Origin: an uncultured Anaerolineales bacterium
Lineage (GTDB): Bacteria; Chloroflexota; Anaerolineae; B4-G1; SLSP01
Assembly (NCBI GenBank): GCA_964516885.1
Contig: CAZEXX010000002.1
Span: forward strand, 3,369 to 42,258
Direction of reading: 5' to 3'
DNA length: 38,890 nucleotides
In this document: positions 7,642-16,468 of the stretch, one piece after another
How positions within the stretch are numbered: position 1 is the stretch's first letter
How the letters are laid out: every line of letters starts with the position of its first letter
Program-made: the position numbers and the translations under genes
The notes under the pieces: generated by a model
Databases searched by the model: none
Told to the model about the DNA's origin: nothing
The model's input: the letters and a program-made list of their open reading frames with translations, nothing else

Positions 7642-7713
7642 TGACCGAAGGTTTGGCCTGCTGTGCCGGCAGGACTGAAGTCACAATTGGGCCAATATCG
7701 TGAGGATATGGCT

Positions 7714-10434
7714 ATGGGTCAGGTCACCGAGGGCCGCTCTTCCCCTGTTTCGCCACTACGCTTGTTGCGTACGAAGCTATTCGTGCCCCACGCTCACCCT
7801 GAGCTGGTGTCGCGCCCGCGGTTGCTGGACCGCCTCGATGGTTGCCTGCGGTGCCGGTTGATCTTGGTCTCCGCTGCCGCCGGCTTTGGGAAGACCACAC
7901 TGCTCAGTACCTGGATCGCCCAGCGCGACGTGGCCGCTGCCTGGGTCTCGCTCGATGATCACGATGATGACCCGGCGCGATTCTGGGCCTATGCGATTGC
8001 CGCGTTGCAGACGGTCTGGCCCGGTGTAGGCGCCGGGGCTGCCGAGATCCTTCAGGCCCCCCAGCCGCCGGCCATAGAGGGGGTGCTCACGGAACTATTG
8101 AATGACGTGGCGGGTCAAGAGGGACACGCGGTCCTCGTGTTGGATGACTACCACGTGATCCAGGAGACGGCAATCCATCAGGGCGTGGCTTTCCTGGTTG
8201 AGCACTCCCCGCCTCAACTGTTGCTTATCCTCGCCAGCCGCACGGATCCACCACTGCCGTTGCCGTTGCTGCGGGCGCGGCGTCAATTGCTTGAGATCAA
8301 AGCCGAGGACCTGAGGTTCACCCGTGCGGAGGCCGACACTTTCTTCAATATGGTGATGGGGCTGGCGCTGGCATCGGAAGATGTTGCCGCGTTGGAGATG
8401 CTGACGGAGGGCTGGGCTGCCGGTCTGCAGCTGGCGGCGCTCTCGATCCAGGAGGTTGCCGACGTTGGTGCATTGGTGGCCTCTTTCTCAGGAAGTCATC
8501 GCTATGTCTTCGATTATCTGGCGCAGGAGGTTATCGACCGACAGCGACCGGAACTGCGTTGCTTCTTGATGCAGACAGCGGTGCTCAACCGTTTGAACGG
8601 TGATCTCTGTGACGCGGTGACGGGGCTTGAGGATGGCCAGCGCGTGCTTGAACAGCTTGAGCAGGCCAACCTGTTCGTGGTCCCTCTCGATCGTGAACGG
8701 CGTTGGTACCGCTACCATCATCTCTTCTCTGATTTTCTGCGGTCGCTTCTGGAGCAATGCGAAACGCCCGAGGCGGTTGCGGCGCTGCATCTGCGCGCCT
8801 GCGACTGGCACGCGGCGCATGGCGACCTACCTGAGGCGATCCAGCACGCTCTGGATGCCAAGGGCTTCGATCGCGCCGCGGCGCTGATCACCGCAGCGGT
8901 GACGGATATGTTCCAGCGCAGCGAGCTGCTCACGCTGTTGCGGTGGCTGCGCACCCTCCCTGAAGATCTGATTGCGCAGAGTCTCTTCCTGAGCATTGCA
9001 GCTGCCTGGGCCAACCTGGCCACCGGTGATTCTGACGCGGTCGAGAGGCACCTGCAGAGGATTGAGCGCACGCTCGGCGTTTCACCTGATAGCGCGTCGG
9101 ATAACTCAGACCTTCCGCCCGAGGCACGGCGTGCGTTGGCCGAAATATGCTCGCTCCGAGGGTCTCTGTCGTTCAACCGGATGGACCTGGACGCTGTGCG
9201 CAGATACAGCCGGCTGGTGGGCGTCTATCTGGCCGATGATCCGGATCAACGCATATTTAACTCACGGCTGTCGCTTGAGTCGGTGGCGGCCTTTAACCTG
9301 GCGCTGGCCTATGAGTACAGCGGTGAGAGTGGCGAAGCTATGGCGGCATTCGAGGCCGCTATCGAGCTACTTCTGCAAGACCAGAACCATCACCTGATCC
9401 CGATGTCCGAAAGCCATTTGGCCCAGTTGCAGGTCAAGACCGGGCAACTCCGTGCCGCCGGTACCACCTACGATGCCGCGTGCCAATCCGTCGGTGACTG
9501 GCCCTCCCGTTCTCCGCTGAGCGGGCTGGCGTTTGTCGGGATGGGTCGGCTGCTCTATGAGTGGAATGAGCTTGATCGTGCGCACGAGCTCCTGCGACAG
9601 GGCTTGGAGCTAGGCAAGCAGTGGTCGCATTGGGAGATTCTGTTCCTCGGATATGCGAGCTTGATCGATGTCGCGCTGGCCGGCGGTGATGATGCCACGG
9701 CCCTCGCGATTCTGGATGAGTGGCAGACCGAGGCAAAGCGCATCGATATGCAGTTGGCGATGCCGGTCTTCTACGCGCACCGGGCATTGATAATGATGCG
9801 CACGGGCCGGCTCGGTGAGGCGCTTGAGTGGGCCTCCAGCTTTGGGATCCCTGGTGACGGCGGGATACCGTATGCGATGGAAGACCAAGCACTGATCCTT
9901 GCCCGCATTTGTATTGCCGGCGGGGATCTGGATCGGGCGGACGGGCTGCTGGCGCGTCTCAGGGCAGGCGCCGAGGGTGGGGGACGTCAAGGACGCCTGG
10001 TCCAGACCGGGGCCCTGGAATCCCTGCTGTTGGATAGCCAGGGGGACGGTCCTGGCGCCCTTGAGGCACTGACTCAGGCGCTCACACTGGCGCAGCCCGA
10101 GGGCTACGTGCGGACCTTTGTCGATCTCGGTGAGCCGATGCGGCGACTGCTGGAACGGGTGACGTCCATGCCTGAATACACCGCGCGCTTGCTGACGGCG
10201 GATGCCGCGCCCCAAAGGGGGCCTGTCCAGGATAGCCTGATCGAGCCGCTGTCGGATCGAGAACTGGACGTGCTGGCGTTGATGGCTGAGGGGTTGACCA
10301 ATCAGGAGATCGCGGACCGGCTCTTCATCTCCGTCAACACGGTGAAGACGCACGCCAAGAGCCTCTACGGTAAGCTGTCTGTGCGCAATCGCGCTGAGGC
10401 GACGTTGCGAGCCAGGGAGCTGAATCTGATATAG
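7714..10434 (+). CDS. MalT-like STAND ATPase / TPR / LuxR-HTH transcriptional activator
   Basis: LLRTKL..P, Walker A AAAGFGKTT, Walker B LVLDDYH, TEGWAAGLQL, WYRYHHLF, C-term LSDRELDVL...TVKTH...KL. Start could be 7708. Confidence 0.93.
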   Translation: MGQVTEGRSSPVSPLRLLRTKLFVPHAHPELVSRPRLLDRLDGCLRCRLILVSAAAGFGKTTLLSTWIAQRDVAAAWVSLDDHDDDPARFWAYAIAALQTVWPGVGAGAAEILQAPQPPAIEGVLTELLNDVAGQEGHAVLVLDDYHVIQETAIHQGVAFLVEHSPPQLLLILASRTDPPLPLPLLRARRQLLEIKAEDLRFTRAEADTFFNMVMGLALASEDVAALEMLTEGWAAGLQLAALSIQEVADVGALVASFSGSHRYVFDYLAQEVIDRQRPELRCFLMQTAVLNRLNGDLCDAVTGLEDGQRVLEQLEQANLFVVPLDRERRWYRYHHLFSDFLRSLLEQCETPEAVAALHLRACDWHAAHGDLPEAIQHALDAKGFDRAAALITAAVTDMFQRSELLTLLRWLRTLPEDLIAQSLFLSIAAAWANLATGDSDAVERHLQRIERTLGVSPDSASDNSDLPPEARRALAEICSLRGSLSFNRMDLDAVRRYSRLVGVYLADDPDQRIFNSRLSLESVAAFNLALAYEYSGESGEAMAAFEAAIELLLQDQNHHLIPMSESHLAQLQVKTGQLRAAGTTYDAACQSVGDWPSRSPLSGLAFVGMGRLLYEWNELDRAHELLRQGLELGKQWSHWEILFLGYASLIDVALAGGDDATALAILDEWQTEAKRIDMQLAMPVFYAHRALIMMRTGRLGEALEWASSFGIPGDGGIPYAMEDQALILARICIAGGDLDRADGLLARLRAGAEGGGRQGRLVQTGALESLLLDSQGDGPGALEALTQALTLAQPEGYVRTFVDLGEPMRRLLERVTSMPEYTARLLTADAAPQRGPVQDSLIEPLSDRELDVLALMAEGLTNQEIADRLFISVNTVKTHAKSLYGKLSVRNRAEATLRARELNLI

Positions 10435-10468
10435 GTGGTTTACGCGCAGTCGGCGCGGAAACCACCAC
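10434..10468 (+). terminator. Hairpin directly after the regulator stop
   Basis: GGTGGTTT.CGCGC-loop-GCGCG.AAACCACC. Confidence 0.55.
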
Positions 10469-10613
10469 TGCGTCATGTCCTTCCCGGTGCCGGAGTCGAT
10501 GATCGGCTACCAGCAGGTCACGCCCAATCCACAACGGCTCGTCAAGGAGCAGGTCAACGATGGCCACCTCGTACTGACCCACCGCCAAACCACCAGATGG
10601 GGAGGATACCGGG

Positions 10614-10746
10614 ATGAGGCTTGCGGGGATCACAGAGGCCGTCCTGGGCTGCGCCTTTGAGGTGATCAACGAGCTGGGTGCCGGATTCCTGGAATCCGTC
10701 TATGAGAGGACGCTTCACCAGAAGGAAGAAACTGGAAGATGGATAG
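10614..10746 (+). pseudogene. Internally deleted GxxExxY protein (PD-(D/E)xK nuclease-like) gene
   Basis: GGAGG RBS; ITEAVLGCAFEVINELGAGFLESVYE is the family N-terminus including the GxxExxY motif; similarity ends near 10710; RFTRRKKLEDG* in another frame (10711-10746) may be the original C-terminus. Confidence 0.8.
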
Positions 10747-10756
10747 GCAGACATTT

Positions 10757-11027
10757 CACATGGATGGAGAGGATGTACAGGAACTTTGTACTGCCCTGAC
10801 TCTGCCCGTCCGGAATGCCTCCATAGGAATCCCTTTCGCCTATCTCTCCTGAATGTCCATCTGGAGATCCCCCTGTCCCGTCCATTCATGTTTGTCTCTT
10901 CTCTCACGCTGGACGAGAAGGGCCGCTTGCCGCAGGTGGCAGAGGGGCTGAAGGGCCATATCCACATGGATGGCGAGGATGTCTAGGATCGGAAAAGAGC
11001 ATCCTGTGTATCCTGTCCATCCATGTT
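10757..11027. repeat. Two pairs of REP-like inverted repeats (ACATGGATGGNNAGGATNNNNAGGA)
   Basis: Forward copies at 10757-10782 and 10963-10989; reverse copies at about 10867-10892 (degenerate) and 11001-11026. Confidence 0.8.
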
Positions 11028-11200
11028 GAGTTCCCTGGTCGAGCGTGGTCTCGCCCTGATTGTGCCGAAGTAGAAGATCAGCGTCTGCATTGGGCTTCGC
11101 GTCAGGCGATCCTGGCTAGGATGACCGCCACGTGTAGGGGCATGGAATCCGGCCTGCCACCAGATGCGGTAGCCCTGCGGCTATCCTCGTGATATCGCTT

Positions 11201-11302
11201 CTCACCCGCGTCACACGACCGGGTGAGGGGGAGCCCCAGCAGCAATCACCTGGTCGAATCCCCCATACGGGTGGTGACGTTGGGTCGTTCGTGGGCTATA
11301 CT
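11201..11302 (+). promoter_or_regulatory. Promoter of the ABC operon with candidate activator boxes
   Basis: IR CTCACCCG/CGGGTGAG (11201-27); AATCACC (11244), AATCCCC (11257), GGGTGGTGAC (11269); -10 TATACT at 11297-302; weak -35 GTGACG. Confidence 0.5.
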
Positions 11303-11336
11303 GTGATCGAATACAGTTAGAGGAGGCGAGGACGGT

Positions 11337-12254
11337 ATGCAGAGCAAAGCGATTCAGGTGACCGGGTTTACGAAGGCCTACGGTGATTTCGTCGCCGTGG
11401 ATGGGATCAGCTTCAGTGTCGAGCAGGGCGAGGTGTTCGGCCTACTTGGGCCGAACGGTGCCGGCAAGACCAGCACACTGGAGTGTCTTGAGGGCATCCG
11501 GCGGCCGACCAAGGGTGCATTGGATGTGATGGGGGTGGATCCCAGCCGGAATGGGCGAAAGCTCCATAATCTTATCGGTGTTCAGCTGCAGACCTCAGGG
11601 TTGCCGGCGACGATGCAGGTGGATGAAGCGATGCGCTTCTTCTCTGCCTACCACGGTGTGACCCCGCGCTATGACCTGGTCGACCGGCTTGGCTTGTCGG
11701 AGAAGCGTGACAGCCAGTACGCGGAGCTCTCGACCGGCCAGCAGCGCCGCCTTGCTTTGGCGCTTGCGGTCGCTCATCGCCCGGCTGTGCTCTTCCTGGA
11801 CGAGCCGACGGCCGGTCTGGACGTTGGGTCCCGCAGCGAGCTGCACGTGTTGATCCGTGAGCTTCAGTCAGAGGGCACCACGATCATATTGGCCACTCAC
11901 GATATGGCTGAGGCTGAGAAGATGGCCGACCGCGTCGCTATCTTGCTGCAGGGTAAGGTGGTTGTGACGGGCACCCCGCGGGAACTGACGGCGACCGGTG
12001 CGGGTTTCACAAAGATCTCCGTACGGACCGAGAAGTCGTTGCTCTGTGAGAACGGCATCGCGTTCCCCGCAGTGCACCGGCGGCTGGTGAAGGACGAGTA
12101 CACCGTCTACTTCAGCAAAGATCCCGGCCCGACAGTGAGTGGGGTCCTAGCCTATCTGACCGAGAAGCAGGAGACGCTAGTTGATCTGCGCGTTGAGCGC
12201 CCATCGCTCGAGGAGCGTTTCCTTGAGATTACACAGACCGGAGGGACGGCATGA
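11337..12254 (+). CDS. ABC-2 type exporter ATP-binding protein (DrrA-like)
   Basis: GPNGAGKT, LSTGQ, FLDEPTAGLD, THDM; AGGAGG RBS. Confidence 0.95.
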   Translation: MQSKAIQVTGFTKAYGDFVAVDGISFSVEQGEVFGLLGPNGAGKTSTLECLEGIRRPTKGALDVMGVDPSRNGRKLHNLIGVQLQTSGLPATMQVDEAMRFFSAYHGVTPRYDLVDRLGLSEKRDSQYAELSTGQQRRLALALAVAHRPAVLFLDEPTAGLDVGSRSELHVLIRELQSEGTTIILATHDMAEAEKMADRVAILLQGKVVVTGTPRELTATGAGFTKISVRTEKSLLCENGIAFPAVHRRLVKDEYTVYFSKDPGPTVSGVLAYLTEKQETLVDLRVERPSLEERFLEITQTGGTA

Positions 12255-13063
12255 CGGCCTTGGTGAACCACTTCGCGTTTGAGTTCAGGACGGGGCTGCG
12301 TAATGCAACCCTATTGATGATGAACTACCTCTTCCCATTGGGCTTCTATGTGATGATGGGTCTGGTGATGACGCAGATCAATCCTATGTTCGCAGAGACG
12401 ATGATACCGGCGATGGTCGTCTTCTCCGCGATGGCGAGCACCCTGTTAGGGATGCCGACGCCGCTCGTGGAGTCACGGGAGGCAGGCATTTTCCGAAGTT
12501 ACAGGATCAACGGCGTCCCCGCGGCCAACATACTGTTGATGCCGGTGCTCACGACGGTGTTCCACGTTCTGATTGTTTCGGCGATCATCGCGCTGACGGG
12601 TGTCCCACTCTTTGACGGCATTGCGCCGGAGAACTGGTCGGCTTTCGCGGGGGTGACGTTGGTTGCAGTGCTCTCCTGTGCCGGTATCGGGTCTCTGATC
12701 GGTGTGGTTGCACAAGACTCGCGCGCGGTGGTTCTCTTCTCTCAGCTGATCTTCCTACCCGCGATGTTGATCGGTGGGGTCATGATGCCGCTGGATGTGC
12801 TGCCTGAGTCGGTGCGTCCCTTCTCTCTGCTGCTGCCCACCTCGCACGCGATGCAGGCGTACTTGGGCTATGCCTACGGTCAGGAGACCCTGCTTTCGCC
12901 GCTTGGCGCGGTGTTAGTTCTAACGGGCAGCGGAGTGCTGGCTTTTGGCCTGGCGATCTACCTCTTCAACTGGGACAGCAAGAACGATGCTCAGCGCGGG
13001 CATCCTCTGATGGCACTGCTGGCGCTGGTGCCCTATGTCATCGCGATGATCACCCAGATCTAG
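12251..13063 (+). CDS. ABC-2 type exporter permease
   Basis: 6-7 TM segments, ESREAGIFRSY, LLPTSH; ATGA overlap with the ATPase gene. Confidence 0.92.
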   Translation: MTALVNHFAFEFRTGLRNATLLMMNYLFPLGFYVMMGLVMTQINPMFAETMIPAMVVFSAMASTLLGMPTPLVESREAGIFRSYRINGVPAANILLMPVLTTVFHVLIVSAIIALTGVPLFDGIAPENWSAFAGVTLVAVLSCAGIGSLIGVVAQDSRAVVLFSQLIFLPAMLIGGVMMPLDVLPESVRPFSLLLPTSHAMQAYLGYAYGQETLLSPLGAVLVLTGSGVLAFGLAIYLFNWDSKNDAQRGHPLMALLALVPYVIAMITQI

Positions 13064-13073
13064 CCGGTGACGG

Positions 13074-13108
13074 ACGGGTGGGCGGTCAGAGGATCGCCTA
13101 CCCGTTTT
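13074..13108 (+). terminator. Intrinsic terminator after the permease
   Basis: ACGGGTGGGCGGTC-agag-GATCGCCTACCCGT followed by TTT. Confidence 0.7.
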
Positions 13109-13128
13109 GGGCATAGGGTCTTTCATTT

Positions 13129-13680
13129 ATGAGCGCTCAACCCATACATTCCCACTCGTCCGCACGCCCAGAGGAAGCGTTACTCTGCACGCTGGACGCC
13201 GGGATGCGCGTCAAGCTCACACTGGTCTTGATCCCCGACCGCGTGAACGGTTCGTTGCCGGCGGGAGCGAGTGAGATATCCTTGATTGAGAGCTGGGCCG
13301 GTAGCCAGGTCTTTCCGGTGAAGCGGCTGTCCCTGACCCGCGCGGATGCTCAGCCCGAGGCTTTCCTGAATCGGTTGCAGTGTGCGCTTGATGGCATCAT
13401 CCAGCTGGAGGTGCCGCAAGGATTGTCAATCGAGGATCGCGTCACCGACCTTGTCAACGCGATCCTGGACGTGCCCTCGGACTTCGCTCTGATGATCTTC
13501 GGCCATGGCGTCGTCGAAGCGCATTCTGTTCATCCTCTTGTGTGCCGGATCCTCGACTATCAGCCCCCCCAGATGCACCTCTATATGATCACCCCGACGG
13601 TCCCGCCCTTGGCCAATCTGCCGCGTCTGAGGGTGCGGCGACAGGTGTTGCAGGTGACCTGGCCCGAAGGGATCACCTGA
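13129..13680 (+). CDS. Stand-alone degenerate MalT-like STAND nucleotide-binding domain (pseudo-NTPase)
   Basis: Aligns by eye with the N-terminal domain of 7714..10434 (e.g. PPQMHLYMITPTVPPLANLPRLRVRRQVLQV vs PPQLLLILASRTDPPL-PLPLLRARRQLLEI); Walker A and B absent. Confidence 0.75.
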   Translation: MSAQPIHSHSSARPEEALLCTLDAGMRVKLTLVLIPDRVNGSLPAGASEISLIESWAGSQVFPVKRLSLTRADAQPEAFLNRLQCALDGIIQLEVPQGLSIEDRVTDLVNAILDVPSDFALMIFGHGVVEAHSVHPLVCRILDYQPPQMHLYMITPTVPPLANLPRLRVRRQVLQVTWPEGIT

Positions 13681-13803
13681 AACCTGATGTCTCTGACGCA
13701 TGTCGGAAATAACGTGTCCAGTTCTCTGTAGTCCGTGTGCCCCGCGATCCAGCGTTGACAGGCGTCGTTACCGCACGCCAGGCGTGTCTGTCAAAGTGTG
13801 ATT

Positions 13804-13831
13804 TTGAAATCATAGAGGAACTTCCTATACT
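13804..13831 (+). promoter_or_regulatory. sigma70-type promoter
   Basis: TTGAAA-16 nt-TATACT. Confidence 0.65.
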
Positions 13832-13870
13832 GGAGTCTGAGCCAAGACCAACAAGCTAAAGGGGACATAG

Positions 13871-14554
13871 TTGGGACGGTTGCTAAGCCTGCGTCGCGCT
13901 TACAGGTCGCTCTATGGCTGGGCCACGGAAAGACTCTATCACGAGCTCGCCTGGGGCTATGAGATCGTGGCTTGGGTGGTCAGTCTGGGCCGGTGGGATG
14001 CCTGGCGCCGCCAAGCTCTTGACCACGTGATCGGCCGGCGGGTGTTGGAGATCGGGTTTGGCACCGGGGTGTTGCTGGAGACGGCTGTTGATCGGGGTAT
14101 GCTCATATTTGGAGCAGATCCATCGCCGGAAATGCATCGTGCTGCCACGAGACGGATGCGCCGCAGTGGCCGGGGAGCACCACGTGTTCGTGCCACGGCG
14201 CAGTTGCTGCCTTTCGCAGATGGGTCCTTCGACACTGCTATCTCGACATTTCCGTCCGGCTACATCTTCGACCCGGATTCCCTCAGCGAGGTCACGCGAG
14301 TGCTCTCCCGTTCTGTGGATGGCGGTGGCTCAGGGCGTCTGGTGATCACTGGGCTGGGCTTCCGGTCTGACCGGCCGTGGCTTCTGCGGCTTCTGCGCAC
14401 TCTTTTCGCTGGATCGGACATAGATAGCGTGGAATGGTATGTCGCTCACGTGGCCGGATTGGGATTCCAGGTGACTGTGGTGGATGACGTTGCCCTGCCG
14501 GTACGGGTGCCGGTGTTGATCTTGCAGCGGCCGGTGCGTTTGGAGGAGGTGTAG
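13871..14554 (+). CDS. Class I SAM-dependent methyltransferase (UbiE-like fold)
   Basis: VLEIGFGTG, GADPSPEM, LPFADGSFD. Confidence 0.85.
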   Translation: MGRLLSLRRAYRSLYGWATERLYHELAWGYEIVAWVVSLGRWDAWRRQALDHVIGRRVLEIGFGTGVLLETAVDRGMLIFGADPSPEMHRAATRRMRRSGRGAPRVRATAQLLPFADGSFDTAISTFPSGYIFDPDSLSEVTRVLSRSVDGGGSGRLVITGLGFRSDRPWLLRLLRTLFAGSDIDSVEWYVAHVAGLGFQVTVVDDVALPVRVPVLILQRPVRLEEV

Positions 14555-14561
14555 CGACATC

Positions 14562-15422
14562 ATGAGCGGTCAAACCCTGAGGCTTCGCGGACGGGTCACC
14601 ATCGGGGGACACATCCAGGCGCGGCGCCCCGGCTGTCGCCGGCTCTCGATTCCCGAGGGACCGGGGGATAGCTACAGGGTCGCGCAACTGGACGACACCA
14701 CGGCTCTGCCCAGGTCTCGTTTCCCGTGGACGCCGCCTGTTGAGTTGCGTGTGACGGCGCGCGTTTCGGCGCCCAACCTCCCGGGAACGTGGGGGTTCGG
14801 TTGGTGGAACGATCCCTTCAGCCTGCAGCTGGGGCTGGGCGGCGCGACGCGGCGGTTGCCGGCCTTGCCCAATGCTGCCTGGGTCTTCTATGCCGCGCCT
14901 CCGAATTACCTGGCATTGCGTGATGATCACCCTGCGCAGGGACTGCTGGCTGCAACGTTTTCCTCTCCGCAGCTTCCGGCTGCCCTCTTGGCACTGGGGT
15001 TGCCGGTTGCATCGCTCTTGATGTCGCCCTGTACCGCGCGTGCAGTTCGGCGTGTGGCGCGCGGGTTTGTGCGTGAGGACGCGGCGGTCCTGCCGCTGGA
15101 TCCCGCGCAGTGGCACACGTATGTCCTGACGTGGACAGAGGATGTGGTTCGCGTGACTGTGGATGGTGTTGTCGCGTTCTCCACGCCGGTGGTGCCGACC
15201 GGTCAGCTCGGCCTGGTGTTGTGGATCGACAACCAATACGCTGCTTTCCCGCCGGACGGCCGCCTGCGCATGGGCTCAAGCGCTAGCCCCGACGCGTGGC
15301 TGGACGTCGCGGATTTGAGTCTGTCGAGGCTGACTGTCGATCCTGATGCCATCCGTGTGAGGGCCGATCGGTCTGAGCTCACGCCGGCGGGTTCACAGGC
15401 TCTTTCGAAACAGAGGAGGTGA
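14562..15422 (+). CDS. Hypothetical protein, probable concanavalin A-like beta-sandwich with a hydrophobic insert
   Basis: GTWGFGWWN, WHTYVLTW...VDG, LGLVLWIDNQ; GGAGG RBS; fills the operon gap. Confidence 0.65.
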   Translation: MSGQTLRLRGRVTIGGHIQARRPGCRRLSIPEGPGDSYRVAQLDDTTALPRSRFPWTPPVELRVTARVSAPNLPGTWGFGWWNDPFSLQLGLGGATRRLPALPNAAWVFYAAPPNYLALRDDHPAQGLLAATFSSPQLPAALLALGLPVASLLMSPCTARAVRRVARGFVREDAAVLPLDPAQWHTYVLTWTEDVVRVTVDGVVAFSTPVVPTGQLGLVLWIDNQYAAFPPDGRLRMGSSASPDAWLDVADLSLSRLTVDPDAIRVRADRSELTPAGSQALSKQRR

Positions 15423-15424
15423 AG

Positions 15425-16468
15425 ATGCCGACCGCGACTGCCGCAGCTCATCCGAACTTGGCCTTTGTGAAGTATTGGGGCCGGCGCGACGCCGCACTCA
15501 ACATCCCGGAGAACGGCTCGATCTCCGTCAACCTGAGCGGCGCGACGACCACAACGACGGTCACCTTCGATGGGGCGCAGGGACAAGATGACGTCACACT
15601 CAATGATGTCGTGGCCAATACCCCGACTCTGACACGTGTCAGCGCGCACCTAGATCGTGTTCGTGCACTGGCTGGCATCACGACCCGGGCGCGTGTCGTC
15701 TCTCACAACGACTTCCCCGCGGATGTCGGGTTCGCGTCCTCCGCGTCGGCCTTCGCGGCGCTATCATTGGCGGCGACGCGAGCTGCCGGTCTCGATCTTG
15801 ACCTGTATGATCTCTCGATCCTGGCGCGCAAGGGATCGGGGTCGGCGTGTCGCTCCATACCGGATGGCTTCGTCGAGTGGCTTCCCGGTTGGGATGATGC
15901 GAGTTCCTACGCGCGGTGCCTCGCGCCGTGCAACCATTGGGATCTCCGCGTGGTGACCGTTGTGCTGCCCGGTAGGCCCAAACTGATCTCGTCCTTGGCC
16001 GGACACCGGGCGGCGCCGACCAGCCCCTTCTATCGCGCGCGGCTCAAGGAGATGCCGCACACGCTGGACCTTGTGCGTCAGGCGCTGCTGGCGCGCGACT
16101 TCGCGAGCTTTGGGTTGGCGGTCGAGCGGGAGGCGTGGTCGCTGCATGCCGTGGCGATGACGTCTCACAGTGAGGGTGCCCCATGGCTGAGCGGTATCTT
16201 CTACATGGAACCCGCGACGGTGCGGCTGATCCGTGCTGTGCAGCTGTGGCGTCGGGACGGGCTGCCCGTAGCGTTCACGCTCGATGCAGGGCCCAGCGTC
16301 CATCTGCTGTGTGAGGGATCATCCCTTGGGGCGGTGCTTGCAGCGGTGCCGTCCGCGGTGGCCGGGACTGCACCTCAAGTGATCGTCAGCCGTCCGGGGC
16401 GGGGTGCGTGGCTGGTCAACGAAAACGACGGAGCCGAAGCCCCGTCGTTTTCGTCGACTACGCTGTAG
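15425..16468 (+). CDS. mvaD: Mevalonate (di)phosphate decarboxylase, GHMP family
   Basis: NLAFVKYWG, GFASSASAFAAL, GSGSACRS, FTLDAGP; ATG 15425 after GGAGG. Confidence 0.88.
   Translation: MPTATAAAHPNLAFVKYWGRRDAALNIPENGSISVNLSGATTTTTVTFDGAQGQDDVTLNDVVANTPTLTRVSAHLDRVRALAGITTRARVVSHNDFPADVGFASSASAFAALSLAATRAAGLDLDLYDLSILARKGSGSACRSIPDGFVEWLPGWDDASSYARCLAPCNHWDLRVVTVVLPGRPKLISSLAGHRAAPTSPFYRARLKEMPHTLDLVRQALLARDFASFGLAVEREAWSLHAVAMTSHSEGAPWLSGIFYMEPATVRLIRAVQLWRRDGLPVAFTLDAGPSVHLLCEGSSLGAVLAAVPSAVAGTAPQVIVSRPGRGAWLVNENDGAEAPSFSSTTL
16419..16454 (-). terminator. Bidirectional terminator (glgC/mvaD) inside the mvaD 3' end
   Basis: 13-bp stem ACGAAAACGACGG/CCGTCGTTTTCGT; cUUCGg loop on the minus strand. 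Confidence 0.75.

Follow-up and report, generated by a model that had tools for sequence, protein, structure and literature searches.

Why would a bacterium keep, directly behind the genes of an ATP-binding cassette (ABC) exporter, a small protein that resembles a single domain of the large regulator encoded on their other side? The question is raised by a 38,890-nt stretch of DNA from an uncultured Anaerolineales bacterium (contig CAZEXX010000002.1 of assembly GCA_964516885.1, positions 3,369 to 42,258), referred to throughout as the window. Here an open reading frame (ORF) of 183 amino acids with an ATG start, at 13129..13680 (+), begins 65 nt past an ABC-2 permease gene (12251-13063), and a full-length MalT-like regulator, a member of the STAND class (signal transduction ATPases having numerous domains), is encoded further upstream. 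A preliminary description of this DNA had proposed that the ORF is a catalytically dead copy of that regulator's nucleotide-binding domain (NBD) and a possible decoy inhibitor. We term the product the short NBD (sNBD). The reading that we favor, though tentatively and at slightly under even chances, is that of a selected, stand-alone pseudo-NBD which would cap the oligomers of the regulator, acting as an inhibitor in a negative feedback.

Several comparisons place the sNBD among the NBD homologues of MalT-type STAND NTPases. BLASTP against the 923-amino-acid MalT-like ORF (7663-10434) gave a single colinear alignment, of residues 7-176 with residues 43-212 at 27% identity (expectation value (E) 1e-10, in a one-to-one comparison only), and all four matching blocks quoted in the preliminary description lie inside it. 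Searched by itself, the sNBD protein aligns its residues 43-177 with positions 39-180 of the NCBIfam MalT profile (E 3.5e-6), at 25 bits against a far higher cut-off of 537 bits. A profile of 22 sNBD family members extends to residues 19-182 of the Escherichia coli MalT chain 8bob_C at E 9.8e-23, the only PDB sequence found at E <= 0.01. An AlphaFold2 model based on the family alignment, in which strands and helices alternate, has a predicted local distance difference test (pLDDT) score of 86.6 and a predicted template modeling (TM) score of 0.82, with pLDDT below 50 only at residues 39-41, within the former P-loop. When this model was compared with the PDB by Foldseek, 8bob_C was again the top match (E 1.9e-9, TM 0.73), followed by Orc1/Cdc6-type AAA+ domains. 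Family profile, structural comparison and NCBIfam model all lead to STAND NBDs, and the predicted structure is the P-loop alpha/beta fold of a MalT-type NBD.

The homology also ends where that domain ends. The sNBD terminates about 7 residues past its RLRVRRQ motif, level with residue ~182 of E. coli MalT, where the NBD ends; the earlier observation that the frame stops there, without winged-helix, tetratricopeptide repeat (TPR) or helix-turn-helix (HTH) regions, is borne out by the profile alignment to 8bob_C 19-182. Pfam detects no family in the sNBD ORF at E <= 0.1 (TPR_MalT and GerE are found in the MalT-like neighbor), and none of the 22 aligned sNBDs matches a STAND, AAA, TPR or HTH family, the only match being a chance one to Barstar (E 0.0067). 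A vestige of the helical domain was sought 3' of the stop codon in 20 loci and none was found (alignment scores 14-30, against 25.7 +/- 4.8 for shuffled sequences), which rules out a pseudogene with residual downstream domains. As judged from these alignments, the sNBD lacks both the MalT/LAL-type TPR sensor and the LuxR/GerE HTH, and its NBD is not continued by helical and winged-helix domains; it cannot itself be an activator.

Within the domain, losses are concentrated in the nucleotide-binding apparatus. They were located in a joint alignment of 18 non-redundant sNBDs, from which four near-identical rows had been removed beforehand, and 23 full-length NBDs (10 from neighboring regulators and 13 from paralogues). 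The regulator's Walker A sequence AAAGFGKT is replaced in the sNBD by IPDRVNGSLPAGASEI and an 8-residue insertion; this former P-loop (residues 35-52, 13231..13284, +) is the low-confidence part of the model. The regulator's VLVLDDYH is replaced by ALMIFGHG, so that in the former Walker B strand (residues 119-127, FALMIFGHG, 13483..13509, +) DD has become FG and the following H has become G. T155-P156 occupy the position of the sensor-I Arg that is invariant in the full-length proteins, and the N-terminal loop (N-loop) LLxTKLxxP is wholly missing from the sNBDs. More generally, the elements LVxRPRL, SAPAGFGKTTL, AWxSLD and DDYH, an invariant F, the sensor-I R and a D two residues later are conserved in the full-length proteins and not in the corresponding sNBD columns. 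Averaged over the columns of the nucleotide site, conservation is 0.96 in the 23 full-length NBDs and 0.31 in the 18 sNBDs; the SAPAGFGKTTL columns range from 0.87 to 1.0 in the MalT set versus 0.11 to 0.67 in the sNBDs, and the Walker B DD columns score 1.0 versus 0.28 and 0.39.

The loss of both Walker motifs from this ORF, as first described, is therefore seen in the BLASTP as well as the joint alignment. How far the designation "catalytically dead" extends to the family is a separate matter. Among the 22 aligned sNBDs, GKT survives only in one (L042). A profile search over 1.84 billion representative sequences, for which all figures given here refer to the best 150 matches, returned 55 short and 76 long proteins; by crude pattern matching, the short ones include none with the N-loop, 20 with GK[ST], 8 with Walker B and 5 with both Walker motifs, versus 53, 76 and 63 of the long ones with N-loop, GK[ST] and Walker B, respectively. 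The designation holds for this copy and most members, and not for the family as a whole, 20 of whose 55 short representatives keep GK[ST].

Other positions have been retained. Conserved in both sets are L30 and L32 of the first strand, W56, L69, F79, L108, N110, Y126, H135, P146-P147, P159-P160-L161 and L167-R168-x-R170, while D23, R29, L83 and R171 are conserved in the sNBDs only, and T31, D143, Y144 and R166 are better conserved there than in the full-length NBDs. Read against the MalT family, this pattern suggests that the sNBD keeps one of the two MalT-type stacking faces, the nucleotide site and the N-loop having been lost. The putative self-association surface includes L167, R168 and R170, which are conserved, align with the patch of MalT used in oligomerization and in binding of its inhibitor MalY, and fall inside the interface predicted below.

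A complex was predicted between the sNBD, with its family alignment, and the NBD, helical domain and winged-helix domain of the regulator, which together form its nucleotide-binding oligomerization domain (NOD; residues 1-350 counted from ATG 7708, with an alignment of 9 cognates). Three runs scored 0.82, 0.81 and 0.82, with 0.00 as the highest score among 3 controls, and the outcome was classed as "supports binding"; 58 of 80 solved complexes, and 2 of 110 mismatched pairs, attain the mark applied, a calibration that is only rough here, where custom alignments were used. The runs share at least 67% of contacts, with a partner pLDDT of at least 80. The suggestion that the ORF product might interact with the regulator gains model-based support from this result. 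On the sNBD side three segments make the predicted contacts: the EDRVTDLVNAIL helix (residues 102-113, 13432..13467, +), in which L108 and N110 are conserved in both sNBDs and MalT NBDs; DYQPP (residues 143-147, 13555..13569, +), in which Y144 is invariant in sNBDs and mostly H in full-length proteins; and ANLPRLRVRR (residues 162-171, 13612..13641, +), in which R168 and R170 correspond to R171 and R173 of E. coli MalT. On the regulator side they comprise residues 18-23, 25 and 30, in the invariant RLLRTK N-loop, the P-loop glycine at 59, and residues 81, 83, 85, 238-245 and 266-274; K23 of RLLRTK was aligned by eye with K6 of E. coli MalT.

These positions have counterparts of described function. 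For E. coli MalT, R143 and R173 are reported as required for MalY binding and for oligomerization, K6 is reported as required for oligomerization (the K6A protein being monomeric), and the N-loop and the MalY patch are both placed within a modeled MalT dimer interface (PMC10427625). Because the predicted contacts align with R171/R173 and with K6, and both surfaces belong to that dimer interface, the prediction appears to reproduce the homotypic stacking contact, the sNBD contributing the "R face" and the regulator the "N-loop face". Conservation of the 21 sNBD contact residues exceeds that of the other 124 core residues (0.75 vs 0.52, permutation p 0.0002), and the same columns show no enrichment in full-length NBDs (0.68 vs 0.69). 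The ratio of non-synonymous to synonymous substitution rates (dN/dS), obtained by the Nei-Gojobori method from three close orthologues (the window copy, L056 and L004), is 0.14-0.23 for contact residues vs 0.33-0.55 for the remainder. The sNBD is predicted, in sum, to bind the regulator through its best-conserved surface, the homologue of the E. coli MalT oligomerization and MalY-binding patch.

The mechanism that we favor would follow from this geometry. By way of helix 102-113, DYxPP (143-147) and PRLRVRR (162-171), the sNBD would dock on the activator NOD at its N-loop face, and no further protomer could be added after it, because N-loop, helical domain and winged helix are all missing from it; with one stacking face and nothing else, it would end the growing oligomer. 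Activator oligomers would in this manner be capped or poisoned and activation lowered.

The same predicted binding and interface would also suit a positive role, in which the sNBD seizes the N-loop and opens the NOD, or nucleates assembly, in a feed-forward arrangement. The predicted surface on the regulator is composite, with contacts reaching the P-loop G59, the helical-domain segment 238-245 and residues 266-274. In addition, and as a point against an inhibitory cap, the E. coli MalT N-loop is described as dual, serving in autoinhibition, where it holds the closed form, as well as in activation (PMC10427625), so that binding could equally release autoinhibition. However, a protein without N-loop, helical, winged-helix or DNA-binding domains, and with a single stacking face, cannot add an active protomer, and a known natural truncated paralogue of a regulator, TrlR, is reported to be an inhibitor (PMC3907764). 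We consider a positive role rather unlikely.

Whether the sNBD is found in the company of the regulator can be read from its genomic distribution. When 145 genomes of the order were scanned with the profile, most proved to have full-length MalT-like genes, a match being present in 101; the 15 best matches outside the window genome all lie in frames of 153-283 amino acids. Among 20 flanks that were fetched and onto which the window genes were mapped, 18 carry an sNBD and two (L051, L052) are split full-length genes. The ABC-2 permease lies directly upstream of the sNBD gene on the same strand in 15 of the 18, the other 3 beginning at a contig end, and in 11 of those 15 a MalT-like gene lies upstream of the ATPase, the other 4 ending before that point; the regulator orthologues in these 11 loci are 45-55% identical. 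The order MalT-like regulator, ABC ATPase, ABC-2 permease, sNBD repeats across several genera and two families, so that the module of regulator, exporter and pseudo-NBD surmised from a single locus is syntenic across genera. A scan of 401 genomes across the class (including one unpublished genome, on which no result rests) added one further cassette, in another order (L059, G326); the other short frames of that scan were full-length genes broken by contig ends or frame interruptions and not sNBDs.

Permease orthologues provide the converse view. They occur in 53 of the 145 genomes, and 3' of the permease is an intact sNBD in 15 genomes, an sNBD running off the contig in 1, an sNBD on an adjoining contig end in 2 and a frame-broken sNBD in 1 (G135, an assembly rich in frameshifts); a 33-codon stub in 1 (G142) and a 67-aa remnant in 1 (G122); a MalT-like N-terminal fragment with Walker A in 2 (G016, in two frames, and G006, where the contig ends); nothing over a span of at least 1.09 kb in 24; and a region that could not be assessed in 6. 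Sixteen of the 24 loci without sNBD have at least 1.9 kb of contig upstream of the ATPase, and a MalT-like STAND gene was found there in 0 of the 16. In 7 of these (L118-L120, L123, L125, L128, L129) no more than a GerE HTH match of 55-83 amino acids is present, 2-3 kb upstream and on the opposite strand in six, and a small LuxR-type regulator of another kind probably controls those transporters. In a tree of 43 permeases, loci with both regulator and sNBD and loci with neither are interleaved, giving 3 independent contrasts on well-supported branches and 5 on all branches, and in every one the sNBD changes together with the regulator. Because the two genes stand on opposite sides of the transporter genes, they could not both be lost in a single deletion. 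Together the four behave as one unit in which the sNBD follows the regulator, as is seen from its absence at all 16 assessable transporter loci without the regulator.

That result bears on another alternative, namely that the sNBD acts on the transporter, an NBD mimic that binds the ABC ATPase as the MalT NBD binds MalK and so competes with, or relays, a transporter-dependent control of the regulator. The gene is always encoded right after the ABC-2 permease, and E. coli MalK is reported to contact MalT through the MalT NBD and sensor domains (PMC10427625). Transporters without the regulator nevertheless dispense with the sNBD in 16 of 16 cases, its presence following the regulator instead, and we regard the transporter as an improbable target.

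Whether the sNBD is a functional gene at all can be judged from the extent of the family and from the constraint on its sequence. A word-indexed protein search recovered 16 relatives of 100-321 amino acids: seven of 183 amino acids at 75-99% identity, six of 158-163 that start at the internal Met26, and three fragments, one retaining LVLDDY. Scans for close relatives found 1 locus among genome contigs and 2 among metagenome contigs. In the profile search, the 55 short proteins (those of up to 230 amino acids, spanning 141-226) accompany 19 of 231-599 and 76 of at least 600; the top 29 are all of 141-201 amino acids, and the 55 constitute separate clusters at 50% identity. Sequences from other genera are only 34-40% identical to the window copy, yet the frame stays open for about 150-200 amino acids and ends in the same terminal motif. 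Same-length orthologues thus exist, and they belong to a populated, unnamed and unannotated protein family, which no Pfam model covers and whose members bear database labels of hypothetical protein or, mistakenly, LuxR/MalT regulator. For the three orthologue pairs, whole-gene dN/dS amounts to 0.35, 0.39 and 0.44 (95% limits by bootstrap 0.22-0.71, with at most 0.05% of replicates reaching 1), and so is not near 1. The corresponding values are 0.08-0.10 for the ABC ATPase, 0.08-0.11 for the ABC-2 permease, 0.17-0.29 for the methyltransferase and 0.17-0.26 for the next ORF downstream, and 0.17 for the C-terminal half of the regulator, whose other pairs were discarded as globally aligned partial fragments. 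The sNBD gene is under purifying selection, and represents a real gene family rather than a decaying copy.

Individual lineages have nonetheless lost it. In G142 (L113, contig C170, 3434-3665; also L071, 2310-2541) a hairpin, the start codon and about 30 sNBD codons remain, after which the sequence jumps to a point just before the methyltransferase gene; this deletion of ~580 bp leaves regulator, transporter and downstream genes intact, with a permease 90% identical, and constitutes a natural knock-out. In G122 (L079, contig C249) the gap between permease and methyltransferase holds a frame of just 67 amino acids that has kept the C-terminal motif ...RLRARRQLLELTL; this frame matches the family profile at E 1.5e-11 and is a decayed sNBD. 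G016 (L112, contig C10, 7128-7697) has at the sNBD position a MalT-like N-terminal fragment, 52% identical to the window regulator. It retains an intact N-loop and both Walker motifs, is split over two frames and is truncated ahead of sensor I by an unrelated gene; a comparable N-terminal piece borders a contig end in G006 (L104). The G016 fragment gives the impression of an independent truncation that arose recently and is decaying. The view of the sNBD gene as the relic of a regulator copy once truncated and now slowly decaying, without present function and open by chance or under weak constraint, would accommodate these losses (together with the 24 loci that have no sNBD), the unrelated broken fragment at the same position in G016, a dN/dS above that of all neighbors and the fast divergence between genera (34-40% identity vs 59-80% for the transporter genes), but is quite unlikely in view of the bootstrap-supported dN/dS below 1 in all three pairs, the frame of 150-200 amino acids kept open behind the permease in 15 genomes of several genera and two families and in one further order, the 55 short clusters, a confident AlphaFold2 model, and conservation that is focused on a single surface, with the nucleotide site left to vary freely.

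The view of the neighboring regulator as recent parent of the sNBD has to be given up. Read without a root, a maximum-likelihood tree of 45 NBDs has all 22 sNBDs on one side of a branch (support 100/99), with end branches about twice as long, while the 10 neighboring regulators form their own clade (99/96) beside the 13 paralogues; the sNBDs stand apart from both. Within the window genome the sNBD is 31% identical to the neighboring regulator and 34% to a paralogue on another contig. The separate branch, with no closer identity to the neighbor, rules out a recent copy of the adjoining gene, and the truncation appears from the tree to be old and to have been passed on with the cassette. An ancestor with two full-length regulators flanking the transporter was also considered and is ruled out, as the tandems in G260 and G352 have no ABC genes between them. 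In these two genomes (L057, G260:C1; L058, G352:C8) two full-length MalT-like genes lie in tandem on one strand, ~4.8 kb apart.

Returning to the inhibitory cap, a number of observations weigh against it. The complex score expresses the model's own confidence, and a pass may reflect likeness to STAND oligomers, since such oligomers have already been solved. The conservation enrichment at the interface is not independent, because the prediction used the same alignment. The N-loop is conserved in all MalT-like paralogues, so that the predicted binding need not be specific to the neighbor. The short family members that retain GK[ST] (20/55) or both Walker motifs (5/55) may still bind nucleotide. 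The dN/dS of the sNBD is 2-4 times that of its ABC and ABC-2 neighbors. At least two close relatives can dispense with the gene, which has been deleted in G142, where regulator and transporter are kept, and reduced to a remnant in G122. The co-occurrence with the regulator amounts to 3 independent contrasts (sign test p 0.25), a number with which significance is unreachable. Finally, the sNBD could be poorly expressed, if a strong hairpin 22 nt ahead of its start codon acts as a terminator. The natural losses and relaxed dN/dS do fit a dispensable fine-tuner. As for the inhibitory direction of the effect, the control of the exporter operon by this regulator and the co-transcription of the sNBD with it, these are inferences. 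If the activator drives the exporter operon, the sNBD would provide negative feedback, because it sits behind an operon that the regulator probably controls, and the hairpin before the gene would set its dose.

The sequence features on which such a circuit might depend can be specified for the window. The frame of the regulator is open from GTG 7663 (923 codons, 7663-10434), with ATG codons at 7708 and 7714, and the full-length protein (7708..10434, +) combines an NBD containing Walker A and B with a MalT-type TPR sensor and a LuxR/GerE HTH (Pfam TPR_MalT 2.4e-56, GerE 1.2e-19 and a weak AAA_16; NCBIfam MalT 9.4e-138, under its cut-off). It is followed by a DrrA-like ABC transporter ATPase (11337..12254, +; Pfam ABC_tran 8.1e-27; NCBIfam drrA subfamily 5.2e-66, under cut-off) and a DrrB-like ABC-2 permease (12251..13063, +; Pfam ABC2_membrane 7.2e-15; NCBIfam below cut-off) that overlaps the ATPase stop by 4 nt. 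A promoter-like site, GTGACG-17-TATACT (11274..11302, +), precedes the ABC operon; it is a consensus match only, at 9 of 12 positions, and its TATACT and the blocks just upstream are conserved in 4 orthologous loci. A second promoter-like site was found by consensus scan at 13804-13831, ahead of the methyltransferase gene, and the same scan detected no promoter-like or terminator-like consensus between permease and sNBD. A search of sequencing runs for 11300-13900 turned up no RNA data set; two runs of unrecorded kind from a single study, stored as contigs, contain about a fifth of its words.

That interval does contain a G+C-rich hairpin of 16 bp (13072..13107, +), between the permease stop and the sNBD start, followed by TTTTGGG. 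Its minimum free energy is -33.5 kcal/mol (z -4.4; 0 of 200 shuffles as stable), and it ends 22 nt before the ATG. The hairpin sequence is kept in 3 close loci, and in other genera (including L038-L049 and L059) a strong hairpin of other sequence occupies the same position, with z <= -2 in 13 of 17 loci and at least 12 consecutive pairs in 15 of the 17; structure has been kept, not sequence. It may be an attenuator that lowers read-through into the sNBD, or an mRNA-stabilizing element, in either case setting the ratio of transporter to sNBD.

Some further observations concern the surroundings of these genes. The blocks conserved upstream of the promoter-like site of the exporter, at 11190-11290 and in the aligned parts of L056, L004 and L113, include an inverted repeat with the consensus CATCACCCG-ACC-GGGTGATG and ATCACC-like words. 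These are candidate LuxR-type HTH sites, the window copies being degenerate and without statistical support. ATCACCC as an operator word was dropped, as 14 copies occur in the window vs 6.8 expected but 0 in the window's own promoter region. The spacer between regulator and ATPase (10435-11336) is unusually long, ~900 nt vs ~200-280 nt in several other genera, and contains a 29-nt imperfect inverted repeat at 10961-11029. On the 3' side of the cassette (13871-16468), a methyltransferase, a family-less 286-aa ORF and a diphosphomevalonate decarboxylase-like gene are syntenic within the genus (L036, L038, L040, L113), and some relatives have a second ABC ATPase, ~32% identical, between the sNBD and the methyltransferase group.

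How does the sNBD compare with known systems? Its sequence and predicted fold match residues 19-182 of the E. coli MalT NBD (domain DT1; 8BOB), with the LRVR motif carrying R171/R173 and the surrounding helix and loop kept; it differs in consisting of the NBD alone, without N-loop, Walker motifs, sensor-I Arg, helical domain, winged-helix domain, arm, TPR sensor or LuxR HTH. To our knowledge, the bacterial inhibitors of MalT are all unrelated to MalT: MalY, Aes and MalK are enzymes or a transporter subunit, whereas the sNBD is a homologue of its proposed target. MalY is described as blocking MalT by covering one NBD oligomerization surface (PMC10427625), and the present proposal likewise invokes occlusion of such a surface. 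The faces differ, MalY binding the R143/R173 face of MalT and the sNBD being predicted to present that face and bind the opposite, N-loop face.

Truncated antagonists of regulators have precedents. TrlR of Agrobacterium, described as specific to some strains, is a truncated TraR reported to act through inactive mixed dimers (PMC3907764), and CerN of Cereibacter, a LuxR homologue without HTH, is reported to antagonize the full-length protein (PMC11655674). The sNBD resembles both in being an activator homologue without a DNA-binding domain. Unlike it, they derive from quorum-sensing LuxR receptors and keep the ligand-binding and dimerization domain rather than a degenerate P-loop NTPase domain, and their targets assemble into dimers rather than multimers. 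STAND and NLR proteins signal by nucleotide-driven oligomerization, and animal COPs and POPs are truncated or single-domain decoys that antagonize full-length members of this class. What the eukaryotic NLR decoys retain is not an NBD alone but effector or death-fold domains, or C-terminal portions; those of plants and animals belong to immune receptors, the sNBD cassette to a transcription factor. In plants, the truncated NLR NRG1C is reported to antagonize the full-length NLR genes next to which it is encoded (bioRxiv 10.1101/2021.01.27.428547). The principle of a truncated, dominant-negative paralogue or decoy is accordingly known, and a literature search, outside which most subscription journals fell, returned no paper on NBD-only or truncated MalT/LAL proteins; a conserved NBD-only pseudo-NTPase partner of a bacterial STAND activator appears to be undescribed.

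It is conceivable, although we hold this broader proposition with less assurance than the inhibitory cap at the present locus, that a widespread, unnamed family of NBD-only pseudo-NTPases, each presenting one stacking face without the other, serves as bacterial chain terminators of STAND oligomerization, exerting negative feedback from behind the operon of the activator, and is the prokaryotic counterpart of plant and animal NLR decoys. Should the sNBD prove inert, the case would still document a fragment of a regulator persisting under selection. If the proposition is true, the sNBD would offer a simple model of capping, with contacts between the N-loop lysine of the regulator and Y144, R168 and R170 of the sNBD, and a natural tool for freezing STAND assembly intermediates that could trap heterogeneous MalT oligomers for structural work. 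It would also mean that bacteria, too, regulate STAND assembly with homologous decoys.

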